A stretch of DNA of 64,000 nt. Origin: Candidatus Methylomirabilota bacterium (GTDB lineage Bacteria; Methylomirabilota; Methylomirabilia; Rokubacteriales; CSP1-6). The notes below the pieces were generated by a model, which worked only from the letters and a program-made list of their open reading frames with translations, was not told where the DNA came from and did no database searches. The position numbers and the translations under genes are program-made. The stretch covers positions 2,334 to 66,333 of the forward strand of contig JBKPAK010000112.1 of the NCBI GenBank assembly GCA_046726415.1, read 5' to 3'. Each line of letters begins with the position of its first letter. Position 1 is the stretch's first letter. Of this stretch, positions 1,801 through 34,049 are shown in pieces.

Positions 1801-2012
1801 TCGAGGCGCGCGCCGGGTCCCCCGGGCCGCGCCGAGCGTTGGGGTTGCCGGGCGGTTGTGACAGCTGCCGACCGCCCAGCTGATGTCGAGGCGCGCCGGG
1901 TCCCCCCGGGCCGCGCCGAGCGTTGGGGTTGCCGGACGGTTGTGACAGCTGCCGACCGCCCAGCTGATGTCGAGGCGCGCCGGGTCCCCCGGGGCGTGCC
2001 GAGCGTTGGGGG
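1801..2012. repeat. tandem repeat, ~84-85 bp unit x ~2.5 copies (units begin tcgaggcgcg... at 1801, 1886, 1970)
   Basis: Near-identical units (only small differences such as a 2-nt indel and gccgggcgg vs gccggacgg) read directly; each unit contains cccggg and two cagctg sites. Intergenic between lon 3' end and transglycosylase 5' end. The ORF-track 292-aa minus ORF shows the duplicated peptide AVGSCHNRPATPTLGAARG twice, reflecting the DNA repeat. Confidence 0.85.
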
Positions 2013-2016
2013 GTTT

Positions 2017-2039
2017 GGGGGGCCCTTTCGAGGCCCCCC
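2017..2039 (-). terminator. GC hairpin (8-bp stem ggggggcc/ggcccccc, 7-nt loop) immediately 3' of lon stop
   Basis: Perfect inverted repeat 2017-2024 / 2032-2039 directly after lon stop codon (2043-2045); no U-tract, so terminator function is uncertain. Confidence 0.35.
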
Positions 2040-2042
2040 ATG

Positions 2043-4439
2043 TCAGTAGGCCACCAGCGGTTCCGTGGTATGGGGCCGCCCAGCGGGTGATGGTTCCAGG
2101 GCCCAGGAAAGCACTTCGTCCACCGAGTCGGCCAGTCTGAAGGTCATGACATCGCGGACCGCCGGCGGGACATCTTCCAGCAGGCTCTTCTCGTTCCGCT
2201 TGGGAAGGATGATGGTGCGCAAACCAGCCCGGTGTGCGGCCAGCACCTTTTCCTTGATGCCGCCGACGGGGAGAACCCGACCGGAGAGGCTGACCTCGCC
2301 GGTCATGGCGAGACTCGCCCGCACCGGACGCCCGGTGAGCAGCGAGACGAGCGCCGTGGTCATGGTCACACCGGCGGAGGGCCCGTCTTTGGGGATCGCG
2401 CCAGCCGGGACGTGAACGTGGATGTCGGACGTCTCCCAGAAGTCCGAGCCGATGCCGAGACTCGCCGCGTGGGAGCGCACCCACGACAGGGCGGCCTGCG
2501 CCGACTCCTTCATGACGTCGCCCAGCTGGCCCGTGAGGGTCAGCGTGCTCTTGCCCGTCATGCCGCTGGCTTCCACAAAGAGGATGTCGCCACCGGCCGG
2601 TGTCCAGGCGAGGCCCACTGCCACACCTGGCACCCGCGTCCGTTCCTCGACTTCTTCGAACTCGAAACGGGGAACGCCGAGGAAGGCCAATACGAGATCA
2701 GGTGTCACCACCACCGGGTCCTGTCGGCCCTCTGCTCGCTGGCGCGCCACCTTGCGGCAAACGCTGGCGATCTCGCGTTCCAGATTGCGCACGCCCGCTT
2801 CCCGCGTGTAGCCGCGGGCGAGCAGGCGCAAGGACTCTGGCGTGAAGGCGATGTCTTCTTCCAGGCGAAGGCCGTGCTCTCGCGCCTGCTTGGGGACGAG
2901 ATGTTTCTGGGCGATGGCGATCTTCTCATCCTCCGTGTATCCGGCGAGATGGATCACCTCCATCCGGTCGCGCAGGGGGGCGGGCACCGCGTCGACGACG
3001 TTGGCCGTGGTGATGAACAGCACACGCGACAGATCGAACGCCACATCCAGATAGTGGTCCCGAAAGGCCGCATTCTGCTCCGGGTCGAGCACCTCGAGCA
3101 GGGCCGAGGCCGGATCGCCCCGGAAGTCCATCCCCAGCTTGTCGATCTCGTCGAGCATGAACACCGCATTCCGCGATCCCGCGCGGCGAAGTCCCTGGAT
3201 GATCTGGCCCGGGAGGGCGCCGATGTAGGTGCGGCGATGCCCTCGGATCTCCGCCTCGTCACGCATGCCGCCCAACGAGATCCGGTGGAACTTCCGGCCC
3301 ATGGCGCGAGCGATCGAACGGCCGAGGGACGTCTTGCCCACGCCAGGAGGACCCACGAAGCACAGAATCGGATCCTTTCCGTCGGGCCGGATCTTCTTGA
3401 CCGCGAGGTATTCGAGAATTCGATCCTTGATCTTGGCCAATCCCTCGTGGTCCTCGTCGAGGATGGCGCGCGCGTTCGCGAGGTCGACCGCGGGGGCCGG
3501 CTCGTCCCTCCAGGGCATCGACACCAGCCAGTCAATGTAGGTCCGGGCCACGGTGTACTCCGCAGCGGCCGGCGGCATCTTGGCGAGCCGGTCCAGCTCG
3601 CGCAGCGACTCCTTTCGGGCCTCTTCGGTCATCCCTGAGGCCTCGATCTTCTCTCGGAGCTCGTCGATCTCCCGACTGCGCTCGTCTCCGTCGCCGAGCT
3701 CCTTCTGGATGGCCTTGAGCTGCTCGCGGAGGTAGTACTCGCGCTGGCTCTTCGACATCTCCGAGTGCACCTCGGACTGGATCTTCGAGCCCAGCTCGAG
3801 GACCTCGAGCTCCTTGCCCAGCGCGGTGACCAGCTTCTGGAGCCGCTCCTTCACATTGAGCGTCTCCAGCAGCTCCTGCTTGAGGGCCAAGGGAAGGGCC
3901 GGCAGGGCCGCCGCCATGAGGTCGGCCAGCGCTCCCGGGCCGGCCCCCGTGCTCTCCGCCACCGAGGCCAGCTCGTCGGGTAGGCTGGGCGAGAGCGAGA
4001 TGACCTTCTGGAAGAGCGTGGTGGCGCTGCGCACCAACGCCTGCGATTCGAGATCCGTCGTACTCGTCTCCGGCTCCTCGATCGCTTGCACCCGCGCGCG
4101 CAGGAACGGTTCCGTCTGCACCAGCTCGAGGACCCGAAACCGGGTGAGGCCTTGTACGACGAGGCGCGCGTTGCCATCCGGCTGCTTGAGCACCTTGTGG
4201 ATGGTGGTTAACGTGCCGATCTGGTAGAGACCGTCGAGCCTCGGCGCATCCTCGGCCGGGTCGCGTTGCATGACCGCGCCGATGAACCGTCCGCCCTGCA
4301 CGGCGTCCTCGAGGAGGCGCAGCGACGAGGGGCGCCCCGCGGCCAGCGGCATCACCGCATGGGGAAACAGCACGCTTCCGCGGAGGGGAAGAATGCCGAG
4401 AATGTCGGGAACCTTGAACTCGTTCTTCTCGTCAGTCAT
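2043..4439 (-). CDS. lon: ATP-dependent Lon protease (799 aa from MTDEKNEFKVPDILGILPLRGSVLFP)
   Basis: LON N-domain, Walker A GPPGVGKTS, Lon S16 serine motif PKDGPSAG; start trimmed from ORF-track 4613 to ATG at 4437-4439 (Met59 of track ORF) matching canonical Lon N-terminus. Confidence 0.95.
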   Translation of the reverse strand: MTDEKNEFKVPDILGILPLRGSVLFPHAVMPLAAGRPSSLRLLEDAVQGGRFIGAVMQRDPAEDAPRLDGLYQIGTLTTIHKVLKQPDGNARLVVQGLTRFRVLELVQTEPFLRARVQAIEEPETSTTDLESQALVRSATTLFQKVISLSPSLPDELASVAESTGAGPGALADLMAAALPALPLALKQELLETLNVKERLQKLVTALGKELEVLELGSKIQSEVHSEMSKSQREYYLREQLKAIQKELGDGDERSREIDELREKIEASGMTEEARKESLRELDRLAKMPPAAAEYTVARTYIDWLVSMPWRDEPAPAVDLANARAILDEDHEGLAKIKDRILEYLAVKKIRPDGKDPILCFVGPPGVGKTSLGRSIARAMGRKFHRISLGGMRDEAEIRGHRRTYIGALPGQIIQGLRRAGSRNAVFMLDEIDKLGMDFRGDPASALLEVLDPEQNAAFRDHYLDVAFDLSRVLFITTANVVDAVPAPLRDRMEVIHLAGYTEDEKIAIAQKHLVPKQAREHGLRLEEDIAFTPESLRLLARGYTREAGVRNLEREIASVCRKVARQRAEGRQDPVVVTPDLVLAFLGVPRFEFEEVEERTRVPGVAVGLAWTPAGGDILFVEASGMTGKSTLTLTGQLGDVMKESAQAALSWVRSHAASLGIGSDFWETSDIHVHVPAGAIPKDGPSAGVTMTTALVSLLTGRPVRASLAMTGEVSLSGRVLPVGGIKEKVLAAHRAGLRTIILPKRNEKSLLEDVPPAVRDVMTFRLADSVDEVLSWALEPSPAGRPHTTEPLVAY

Positions 4440-33211: not shown

Positions 33212-33212
33212 C
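33161..33212 (+). repeat. 18-bp near-exact direct repeat (cctcNgctgagcgttgac) with 34-bp period at livG/livF junction
   Basis: Copies at 33161-33178 and 33195-33212; copy 1 contains livF TTG start (33174), copy 2 contains livG TGA stop (33209-11), producing a 38-nt gene overlap. Confidence 0.7.
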
Positions 33213-33899
33213 GCCTTGCACGTCTACTACGGGGAAATCCACGCCCTCAAGGGCGTAGCCTTCCGCGTGGAGCGCGGCGAGATCGTGGCCCTGCTCGGCA
33301 ACAATGGCGCCGGCAAAACCACGACGCTCAAGACCGTGTCCGGACTGCTGACCCCGAGGACAGGGGGCGTGGCCCTGGAGGGAGAGCAGCTCACCGGCCG
33401 TCCCCCGCACGAGGTCGTCCTGAAGGGGATCGCTCACGTCCCCGAGGGGCGACGGATTTTCAATCGACTGACCGTGCGCGAGAATCTGCTGATGGGCGCC
33501 TATCGCCGGCGCGACACCGGAATCGCCAGCGATTTCGAACGCGCCCTCGCGCTTTTCCCGCGATTGCGCGAACGGCTTGCCCAGATCGCCGGCACCCTCT
33601 CGGGCGGGGAACAGCAGATGCTGGCCATCGCGCGCGCCCTCATGACGAACCCTCGGCTGCTACTCCTGGACGAGCCGAGCATGGGGCTCGCCCCTGTCCT
33701 CGTGGAACAGATATTCCAGACCATCAGTGACATCAACCGCGAGGGCACGACGATCCTGCTCGTCGAGCAGAACGCCGCCATGGCCCTCGCCCTCGCTCAT
33801 CGGGCGTACGTGCTGGAAACCGGCACCGTCATGCTCTCGGGTCCCGCCAGCGCGCTGGCCCAGAACCCCGAGGTCCGGCGCATCTACCTCGGCGAGTAG
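33174..33899 (+). CDS. livF: ABC transporter ATP-binding protein, LivF family
   Basis: LLSVDALHVYYGEIHALKGVAF..., GNNGAGKTTT Walker A; start (TTG 33174) uncertain, a start near 33199-33205 would better match canonical LivF N-termini. Confidence 0.85.
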   Translation: MTGRREQPLLSVDALHVYYGEIHALKGVAFRVERGEIVALLGNNGAGKTTTLKTVSGLLTPRTGGVALEGEQLTGRPPHEVVLKGIAHVPEGRRIFNRLTVRENLLMGAYRRRDTGIASDFERALALFPRLRERLAQIAGTLSGGEQQMLAIARALMTNPRLLLLDEPSMGLAPVLVEQIFQTISDINREGTTILLVEQNAAMALALAHRAYVLETGTVMLSGPASALAQNPEVRRIYLGE

Positions 33900-33900
33900 C

Positions 33901-34049
33901 CGCAGGACGCAGGGTGAGCCACAGGTCGAGGCGAGCTAGGACGCAGGGCGAGCCGCAGGTCGTCGCAGGGCCGGGGCCCCGCCGTCCGAGGCGAGCTAGG
34001 ACGCAGGGCGAGCCGCAGGTCGTCGCGGGGCTGGGGCCCCGCCGTCCGA
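33901..34049. repeat. 60-bp tandem repeat x ~2.5 (units 33930-33989 and 33990-34049, 2 mismatches; partial copy 33901-33929)
   Basis: Read directly; each unit contains a GGGGCCCC palindrome core; intergenic between livF and maoC (translating it yields the repeated peptide RRARTQGEPQVVAG, so the upstream extension of the MaoC ORF was rejected). Confidence 0.85.

Follow-up and report, generated by a model that had tools for sequence, protein, structure and literature searches.

Short tandem duplications that lie just where one gene ends and the next begins raise the question of whether they record one mutational habit of their host or several unrelated events. This question is posed by a 64,000-nt stretch of DNA (the window) from an uncultured soil population of Candidatus Rokubacteria (Methylomirabilota), in which the initial annotation had noticed five such duplications and ascribed them to a single lineage-specific propensity. 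The analysis presented here suggests that two ordinary processes, operating side by side, have probably lengthened the short spacers and junctions of this DNA: local tandem duplication, and tandem reiteration of a dispersed intergenic element.

Tandem Repeats Finder (TRF) recovered duplications with periods of 84, 36 and 60 bp, and a complementary direct-repeat search confined to spacings of at most 150 nt recovered those with spacings of 29 and 34 nt, the latter as a 24-nt pair of which 18 nt had been seen before (Table 1). All five therefore exist at or near the positions first given, and the direct-repeat search added a sixth locus with a spacing of 49 nt. A strict detector, defined by an ungapped self-match of at least 18 nt with at least 88% identity and covering at least 55% of the period, returned four matches in the window, all with periods of at least 29, and none in 15 fifth-order Markov simulations and 15 triplet shuffles of the window (n=30). 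Their absence from 30 random sequences implies that the observation of repeats is real. Beyond 34.1 kb, i.e. in the 34-64 kb part of the window, neither TRF nor the direct-repeat search detected a tandem duplication of this type. The description of the duplications as recent agrees with the identity between the 29-bp copies (100%), the two complete 84-bp units (99%) and the 60-bp units (97%), but not with that of the 36-bp copies (81%) or with the state of the 34-bp copies, which have decayed except over 24 nt.

Probing with AroB identified Candidatus Rokubacteria/Methylomirabilota metagenome-assembled genomes (MAGs) as the nearest genomes, L029 being the closest (85%) and L028 the next (79%). 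Exact-protein look-ups led to metagenome contigs of the Joint Genome Institute that match the window at 99.5-99.9% identity and, by this similarity, appear to be independent samples of the same population; their gene calls and Pfam labels provided the gene map. Gene calls and translations bore out the location assigned to the duplications, including the straddled start and stop codons, since every repeat locus is intergenic, lies across a stop or start codon, or falls within an N-terminal leader. Between 1.7 and 44 kb, only about 2.76 of 42.3 kb are intergenic according to the gene calls (about 6.5%, i.e. about 93% coding), and many gene pairs in this stretch overlap or sit a few bases apart. 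In such DNA only junctions, leaders and spacers would tolerate insertions of 29-84 bp, so that surviving insertions would be found at junctions and would consequently carry copies of stop codons, start codons and ribosome binding sites. The observed placement is what purifying selection predicts, and junction enrichment is expected from selection at this coding density.

The 29-bp duplication lies at the junction of pilP and pilQ. Each of its units copies the Shine-Dalgarno-like GGACAGAG, the TTGA stop/start overlap and the first pilQ codons. When ten sequences of the population were aligned, three alleles emerged, with one unit (L021), two units (the window and seven contigs) and three units (L020), which join the two genes by a 4-nt TTGA overlap, a 25-nt gap and a 54-nt gap, respectively. 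The sister species represented by L029 has an ATGA overlap at this junction, which implies that the duplication is derived. Because 29 equals 2 modulo 3, a relay open reading frame (ORF) of ten codons begins at the first-copy TTG, within the TTGA of pilP, and its TGA overlaps the pilQ TTG; by chance this frame condition is expected in one of three cases. In the single-copy allele, GG stands both at the start of the 33-nt unit and directly after it. Furthermore, the upstream 29-bp copy is devoid of 4 nt (ACCG) that are present in the downstream copy, implying that either the 33-nt duplication was not clean or a small deletion came after it. Separately from this duplication, the Lys/Glu/Ala-rich N-terminal region of PilQ is encoded by DNA with an in-frame 21-bp x 2.3 repeat (22097-22144, 77% matches), and similar coding repeats of 15-30 bp occur at the same place in many relatives.

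The spacer between livF and maoC is filled by the 60-bp array. Besides two full units and an incomplete one, it contains a diverged partial copy of 34 nt (at 33893). Every unit has the livF stop region duplicated at its head, as GGCGAG(C)TAGGA, and the palindrome GGGGCCCC at its end. Two full units are present in the window and in five contigs (L010, L012, L014, L016 and L018), and a single unit in three contigs with three different SNP patterns: L011 has the haplotype of the window, L017 that of L016, and L013 joins a unit of the L010 type to a tail of the window type, which a simple loop-skip of a two-unit contig would not produce. These patterns point to a unit that has probably been gained or lost recurrently in the population. 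In five of seven other Rokubacteria examined, the livF-maoC spacer measures 6-14 nt (about 19 nt in L071 and about 54 nt in L057), compared to 113 or 173 nt in the population; given the short spacer of most relatives, most of the 173 nt in the window has been added. The unit begins with CGAGG, and CGAGG occurs again right after the array, a 5-nt GC-rich arm that is compatible with microhomology-mediated duplication. The same spacer of L029 harbors an unrelated 40-bp x 2.8 tandem array (20931-21041) that abuts a GGAGGGGGCC..GGCCCCCTCC hairpin, part of which is included in each unit.

Two further duplications are shared by all population contigs, as judged from equal gene lengths. In the leader of a minor pseudopilin similar to GspH, 36 bp (12 codons) are duplicated in frame; the two copies translate as AAGAHLAELVLV followed by AAGASLAELLVV, which doubles the prepilin cleavage motif G/A..LAEL. 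A weak N_methyl Pfam match on residues 45-66 corresponds to the second copy, as does the start of the alignment with homologues from about 30 Rokubacteria loci, which is found at residue 42-48 in most of them (range 14-72). L029 and L028 possess a single prepilin motif after leaders of 9 and 15 residues, and the window is about 110 nt longer there. The sister species lacks this duplication, which appears to be old and fixed in the population. If cleavage by the peptidase takes place at the second G/A, the duplication would leave with the leader and would be harmless.

At the livG/livF junction, both copies of the decayed duplication of about 34 nt contain GCGTTGAC, and alignment of the window with L029 revealed a 33-nt insertion that is a copy of adjacent sequence. 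The livG frame stays open across copy 1 and is closed by the TGA in copy 2 (33209-33211), and homologues of LivG align only as far as residue ~250-257 of 278. The TTG of copy 1 (33174) is the only in-frame livF start upstream of the conserved LLSVDALHVYYG; the GTG start of L029 livF, read by eye from the raw sequence, is CGT in the window. Comparison of the sequences suggests an older event, fixed in this population and without counterpart in the sister species. Altogether, the duplications are derived relative to L029, and the remodelling of junctions that had been proposed is evident in the DNA itself: TTGA was turned into a spacer of 25 or 54 nt, livG/livF gained 34 nt and a new livF TTG, and the livF-maoC spacer grew from 6-14 to 113 or 173 nt. 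These changes may affect translation.

The 36-, 29-, 34- and 60-bp units repeat either N-terminal codons or the stop/start region of the gene next to them, and BLAST against 1.83 Mb of fetched sequence gave no match to them outside their own locus. Slipped-strand or microhomology-mediated tandem duplication (MTD) of local junction sequence would account for these four loci as two old events, the 36-bp and ~34-bp duplications in the pseudopilin leader and at livG/livF, which have since become fixed, and two young ones, the 29-bp and 60-bp duplications at pilP/pilQ and livF-maoC, whose units would still come and go in the population. Gain and loss of units after the initial duplication would give rise to the behavior of a variable-number tandem repeat (VNTR).

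The 84-bp array following lon and the 49-nt pair following livK appear to have another origin, as tandem copies of a dispersed intergenic element of about 80 nt with two hairpins. The element has the layout ATGGGGGGCCcCGAaatGGCCCCCC - AAC - CCCCCC - AACGCTCG - hairpin B (cGCGCCCCGG...CCGtGGCGCt) - CCTCGA, its parts being ATGGGGGGCC..GGCCCCCC, a C-rich linker, ACGCTCG, a second G+C hairpin and CTCGA, and it usually starts 0-10 nt from a stop codon. Its model R1 is a covariance model built from a 16-copy alignment (A4), whose consensus fold consists of two separate and different hairpins (A and B), and was searched with cmsearch. A simple hairpin pattern, GGAGCGYC...GRCGCTCC, was too narrow for this purpose, as it found only the livK site and L035, and the covariance model was needed. 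R1 detected the element at both loci and, as a degenerate copy, in the spacer between a Macro-domain gene and pilB (Table 1); at the 36-, 29-, 34- and 60-bp loci it found nothing significant, the best match scoring 6.7 bits at 33917-33984. The array next to lon comprises a canonical copy 1 and the 84-bp units (copies 2 and 3), whose first hairpin is a variant.

Outside the window, L029 carries three copies of the element in 21 kb (1363-1450, 9887-9969 and 15610-15691), and L035 has about eight matches, among them its two long tandem arrays of 73-bp and 82-bp units. These are the only two of 49 Rokubacteria aroB loci with the element, as the R1 search detected none in the other 47. A group of metagenome contigs (L103-L117) has it 3' of the lytic transglycosylase gene, as a single copy in eight contigs and as two tandem copies in L104-L107. 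Concordantly, when all units were compared by BLAST with the fetched sequence, only the 49-nt unit matched elsewhere (L035 and L104-L117). Rfam returned no family at the gathering threshold and only spurious sub-threshold matches at the lon array. The element is missing from Rfam, patchy among Rokubacteria, often tandemly reiterated and conserved between species.

The R1 matches at several sites and in several species identify the lon locus as a tandem cluster of a dispersed palindromic element, comparable to clusters of repetitive extragenic palindromes (REP) and bacterial interspersed mosaic elements (BIME). The 99% identity of the two complete 84-bp units implies that the last step at this array was a recent duplication. 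Reiteration of the element after stop codons would likewise account for the livK pair, and the livK-livH spacer measures 241 nt in the window versus about 51-57 nt in L029 and L028. No target-site duplications could be defined by comparing filled with empty sites, the alignments being too divergent, and the only recombinase among the Pfam matches in the window is a XerC/D-like tyrosine integrase. Hairpin A resembles a terminator but has no T-run, and no T-tract terminator was called. The 84-bp array sits between hairpin A and a promoter-like site of the transglycosylase gene and breaks neither signal; promoter and terminator prediction returned nothing within any array and a single promoter-like site (1752-1724, minus strand) outside the 84-bp array. 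This promoter-like TTGGCG-17-TAGAAT (1715-1752, minus strand) ends 6 nt before the GTG of the transglycosylase gene and is conserved in L098 and L099; its spacing to the GTG suggests a leaderless mRNA.

All six short-read contigs holding the lon stop break off no more than about 55 nt downstream of it, at the edge of the 84-bp array or slightly inside it, so that none of them spans the array, and the gap between lon and the transglycosylase (SLT) gene measures 527 nt in one contig versus 325 nt in the window. A 31-nt exact pattern from the 84-bp unit was not found in a scan of metagenome contigs, a follow-up protein scan returned only other species with at most 77% identity, and no record matched the lytic transglycosylase protein exactly.

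To what extent the window is exceptional was judged from comparison loci searched with the strict detector. The 49 Rokubacteria aroB loci (729 kb) contained 16 matches, ten with a period of at least 25; loci from other taxa (286 kb) three, none with such a period; and metagenome loci around transglycosylase homologues (423 kb) five, including two of the longer periods. Pooled over 1.44 Mb, this corresponds to 1.07 matches per 64 kb, or 0.53 at periods of at least 25, compared to four in the window, whose density is thus about 4-8 times that of the comparison loci with a Poisson tail of ~0.02 for all periods and ~0.002 for periods of at least 25. Eight loci from long-read MAGs (168 kb) gave 1.5 matches per 64 kb. 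These figures apply to a window picked because of its repeats, the second half of which has none of them, and to a comparison set consisting mostly of short-read contigs, which break at such arrays and bias it low. The density claimed to exceed chance does so when measured against random sequences, but over the comparison loci the excess is only about fourfold across all periods and was seen post hoc. It represents a modest local excess in density, not a demonstrated genome-wide propensity.

A lineage with an unusually high rate of short tandem duplication, due to a slippage or repair bias that acts genome-wide and remodels junctions and translational coupling, would agree with this density and with the 21-kb window segment syntenic to the aroB loci, which has three strict matches when none of the 49 loci has more than two. 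Several spacers that are longer than in the sister MAGs, the unrelated array of L029 in its own livF-maoC spacer and the 8-17% non-coding DNA reported for Rokubacteria genomes (PMC5712423) point in the same direction. Nevertheless, we consider this explanation unlikely, because the excess is modest (Poisson p ~0.002-0.02) and was noticed post hoc, the 34-64 kb part of the window is free of such repeats, the comparison set is biased low by assemblies that break at them, and the loci are unlike in origin and age. The latter also speaks against the common theme proposed in the initial annotation: the repeats belong to two known classes of different ages, the largest being a cluster of a dispersed palindromic element and two being old. 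That all repeats are miniature mobile elements targeting gene ends, similar to REP, REPIN or miniature inverted-repeat transposable elements, with no local duplication involved, holds for the lon array and the livK-livH pair, which match an element model found in several contexts and species. For the window as a whole it is very improbable, given that the other four loci score at most 6.7 bits with R1 and that their units copy the neighboring gene and are unmatched elsewhere in the 1.83 Mb. Artefacts of assembly, such as strain variants joined in tandem, might be suspected from copies that differ by few SNPs, like strain alleles, and from assemblies that do break at the 84-bp array. This hardly seems credible, because two-copy structures recur in many independent assemblies from different samples, the 29-bp array spans 62-91 nt and is assumed to be shorter than the reads, and gene lengths at the 36- and 34-bp loci do not differ between contigs.

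The variable units might instead be selected contingency loci that would tune or switch expression of pilQ or maoC; at the pilus secretin, a change in copy number could act against pilus-dependent phages. Three pilP/pilQ alleles coexist in nature, the period of 29 nt (2 modulo 3) endows each unit with a relay ORF that overlaps its neighbors by TTGA on either side, the pilus cluster holds two of the six loci, and mycobacterial interspersed repetitive units (MIRUs) have been described with a -4 nt coupling to the downstream gene (PMC12548453). However, chance alone would yield this frame in one of three cases, the two-copy allele dominates (8 of 10 sequences), and neutral drift of a tolerated repeat accounts for the same observations, which makes selection for switching quite improbable. 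We thus favor local duplication together with reiteration of the element, while several observations weigh against this combination. The microhomology expected at the borders was found as the GC-rich 5-nt CGAGG at the 60-bp locus, but it is weak at the 29-bp locus (GG, 2 nt), and the borders of the 36- and 34-bp loci are too decayed for it to be read. DNA folding of eight units showed that the 84-, 60- and 29-bp units do not fold better than shuffles and that only the 49-bp unit and the 73-bp unit of L035 do (z ~ -2.3); as most units fold no better, the folds do not establish hairpin-stalling as the trigger. Repeat collapse by short-read assemblers could in part explain the single-copy 60-bp alleles of L011 and L017. 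Finally, four strict matches in 64 kb exceed the 1.07 (0.53 at periods of at least 25) of the comparison loci, so that some locally or lineage-wide raised duplication rate may contribute. A mutational bias specific to the lineage is nonetheless unproven, with no clear evidence of a special genome-wide mutational habit.

Table 1. Repeats, element copies and genes of the window (R1, covariance model of the element; population map, gene calls and Pfam labels of population contigs)
Feature	Position	Strand	Basis and details
Lytic transglycosylase gene	1016-1717	minus	Population map
Three head-to-tail element copies between lon stop and lytic transglycosylase promoter	1792-2041	minus	TRF array 1808-2011 (period 84, 2.4 copies, 95% matches); R1
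Element, diverged full copy with variant first hairpin (84-bp unit)	1792-1879	minus	R1 38.7 bits
Element, partial copy	1886-1929	minus	R1 22.2 bits
Element, canonical copy 1	1961-2041	minus	R1 78.7 bits; starts 1 nt past lon stop
Hairpin A (GGGGGGCC-N7-GGCCCCCC)	2012-2040		2 nt after lon stop; sequence, A4 consensus fold
lon	2043-4439 (stop 2043-2045)	minus	Population map
MerR-type regulator, DnaJ and DnaK genes			Population map, listed after lon
Element, degenerate copy, Macro-domain gene/pilB spacer	10318-10395	minus	R1 43 bits, E = 2e-7; 73% match to head of 84-bp unit
Type IV pilus cluster, pilB to secretin pilQ	pilQ 21593-23425		Population map
Pseudopilin ORF	16352-16960		Pfam GspH, E = 4.6e-9
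In-frame 36-bp duplication, leader/N-terminus of GspH-like minor pseudopilin	16444-16515	plus	TRF 16444-16522 (period 36, 2.1 copies, 83% matches); translation
29-bp duplication of pilP/pilQ junction	21556-21608	plus	Direct repeat 21556-21579 / 21585-21608, 24 nt, 100% identity, spacing 29
Relay ORF (LSLPHRSGQS and stop)	21564-21596
pilP stop	21565-21567
pilQ start TTG	21593
aroB, efp, accBC, then livK, livH, livM			Population map
Element, full copy, livK-livH spacer	30019-30101	plus	R1 82.2 bits
Sixth repeat locus (49-nt pair)	30057-30145		Direct repeat 30057-30096 / 30106-30145, 40 nt, 83%, spacing 49
Element, hairpin-B module only, livK-livH spacer	30106-30141	plus	R1 31.3 bits
livG	32375-33211		Population map
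Decayed duplication of ~34 nt, livG/livF junction	33143-33212	plus	Direct repeat 33155-33178 / 33189-33212, 22/24 nt, spacing 34
livF	end 33899		Population map
60-bp array filling livF-maoC spacer	33893-34060	plus	TRF 33927-34060 (period 60, 2.2 copies, 94% matches); direct-repeat search
MaoC-like dehydratase gene (maoC)	34073-34528		Population map
XerC/D-like integrase gene; hydantoinase fusion genes; ribosomal protein operon at right end			Population map

The window (Table 1) has a G+C content of 63-71% per 2-kb segment, and a tRNA search found none. A CGTGnTAATCTA motif 5' of aroB is conserved in three species (window 23426-23480, L029 9970-10000, and L028) and is probably the -10 region of the aroB promoter. 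The two paralogous hydantoinase A/B fusion genes (35556-39482 and 44749-48699, about 1300 aa each) have common segments with ~74-88% DNA identity, and each adjoins an ABC transporter. In the ribosomal protein operon, the 182-nt spacer between rplR (L18) and rpsE (S5) (61390-61571, minus strand) is unusually long and contains several G+C hairpins without a tandem repeat; past the right end of the window, an unusually long 141-nt spacer separates rpmC (L29) from rpsQ (S17) (L178, 5978-6118).

Known systems offer a counterpart for both kinds of repeats. The local duplications fit VNTRs and MTD. MTD is reported as the dominant route to bacterial tandem duplications (bioRxiv 10.64898/2026.02.28.708716), and long GC-rich arms are reported to be about 1000-fold more prone to it (bioRxiv 10.64898/2026.02.28.708716; PMC8639346). 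As described for such repeats (PMC8639346; bioRxiv 10.64898/2026.02.28.708716), units of 29-60 bp are present in two to three near-identical head-to-tail copies, copy number differs within the population (one, two or three at the 29-bp locus, one or two at the 60-bp locus) with gain and loss both seeming to occur, and a short GC-rich direct repeat (CGAGG) borders the 60-bp unit. Unlike in VNTRs, all contigs agree in gene length at the 36- and 34-bp loci, and unlike in reports on MTD, borders are clean at two loci only, the 29-bp locus has a 2-nt arm and a 4-nt indel between its copies, and the duplications are known from standing variation between contigs, not from de novo formation. At pilP/pilQ, units lie between operon genes and vary in number, as do the MIRU-VNTRs of Mycobacterium. 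According to a recent review, the internal ORF of MIRUs is coupled with a -4 nt spacing (PMC12548453), and at the 29-bp locus, and only there, each unit has a small ORF with 4-nt TTGA overlaps with the upstream stop and the downstream start. However, MIRUs are a dispersed, apparently mobile family of 40-100 bp, whereas the 29-bp unit is confined to pilP/pilQ in the window and all fetched loci and is a plain copy of the original junction, in a host that is not a mycobacterium.

The clusters of the ~80-nt element would fit the REP/BIME picture, likewise a known kind. Like REP, BIME and REPIN of Proteobacteria (PMC3116915, PMC3337134), the element is short, palindromic and extragenic, lies at several unrelated intergenic sites, is conserved between species and is often found in tandem clusters by gene ends. 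Among the repeat loci of the window, this resemblance concerns only the lon array and the 49-nt pair. It differs from a REPIN (PMC3116915) in combining two different hairpins and a C-rich linker instead of two inverted copies of one REP, and from REP in that no GTAG-type 5' motif is evident. Unlike REP and BIME, it is patchy in Rokubacteria, being present in two of 49 aroB loci, the window species and the L103-L117 group.

Nothing here overturns current understanding, and a literature search retrieved no paper that pairs Rokubacteria with tandem repeats. As repeats break short-read assemblies, seen in all six contigs with the lon stop, comparisons based on MAGs undercount them. A more far-reaching reading, which we regard as doubtful, is that some Rokubacteria carry an undescribed bipartite palindromic element that seeds tandem arrays and that, together with frequent junction duplications including self-made MIRU-like relays, would reflect an elevated hairpin- or microhomology-driven rate, lengthening intergenic DNA and uncoupling overlapping genes in large genomes relatively rich in non-coding DNA. 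A conserved two-hairpin element in some Rokubacteria accounts for most long-period arrays in the sampled loci. The pilP/pilQ junction provides a natural before/after series in which tandem duplication turns a 4-nt gene overlap into a spacer, with alleles of one, two and three copies coexisting in one uncultured population while start, stop and ribosome-binding signals are kept.

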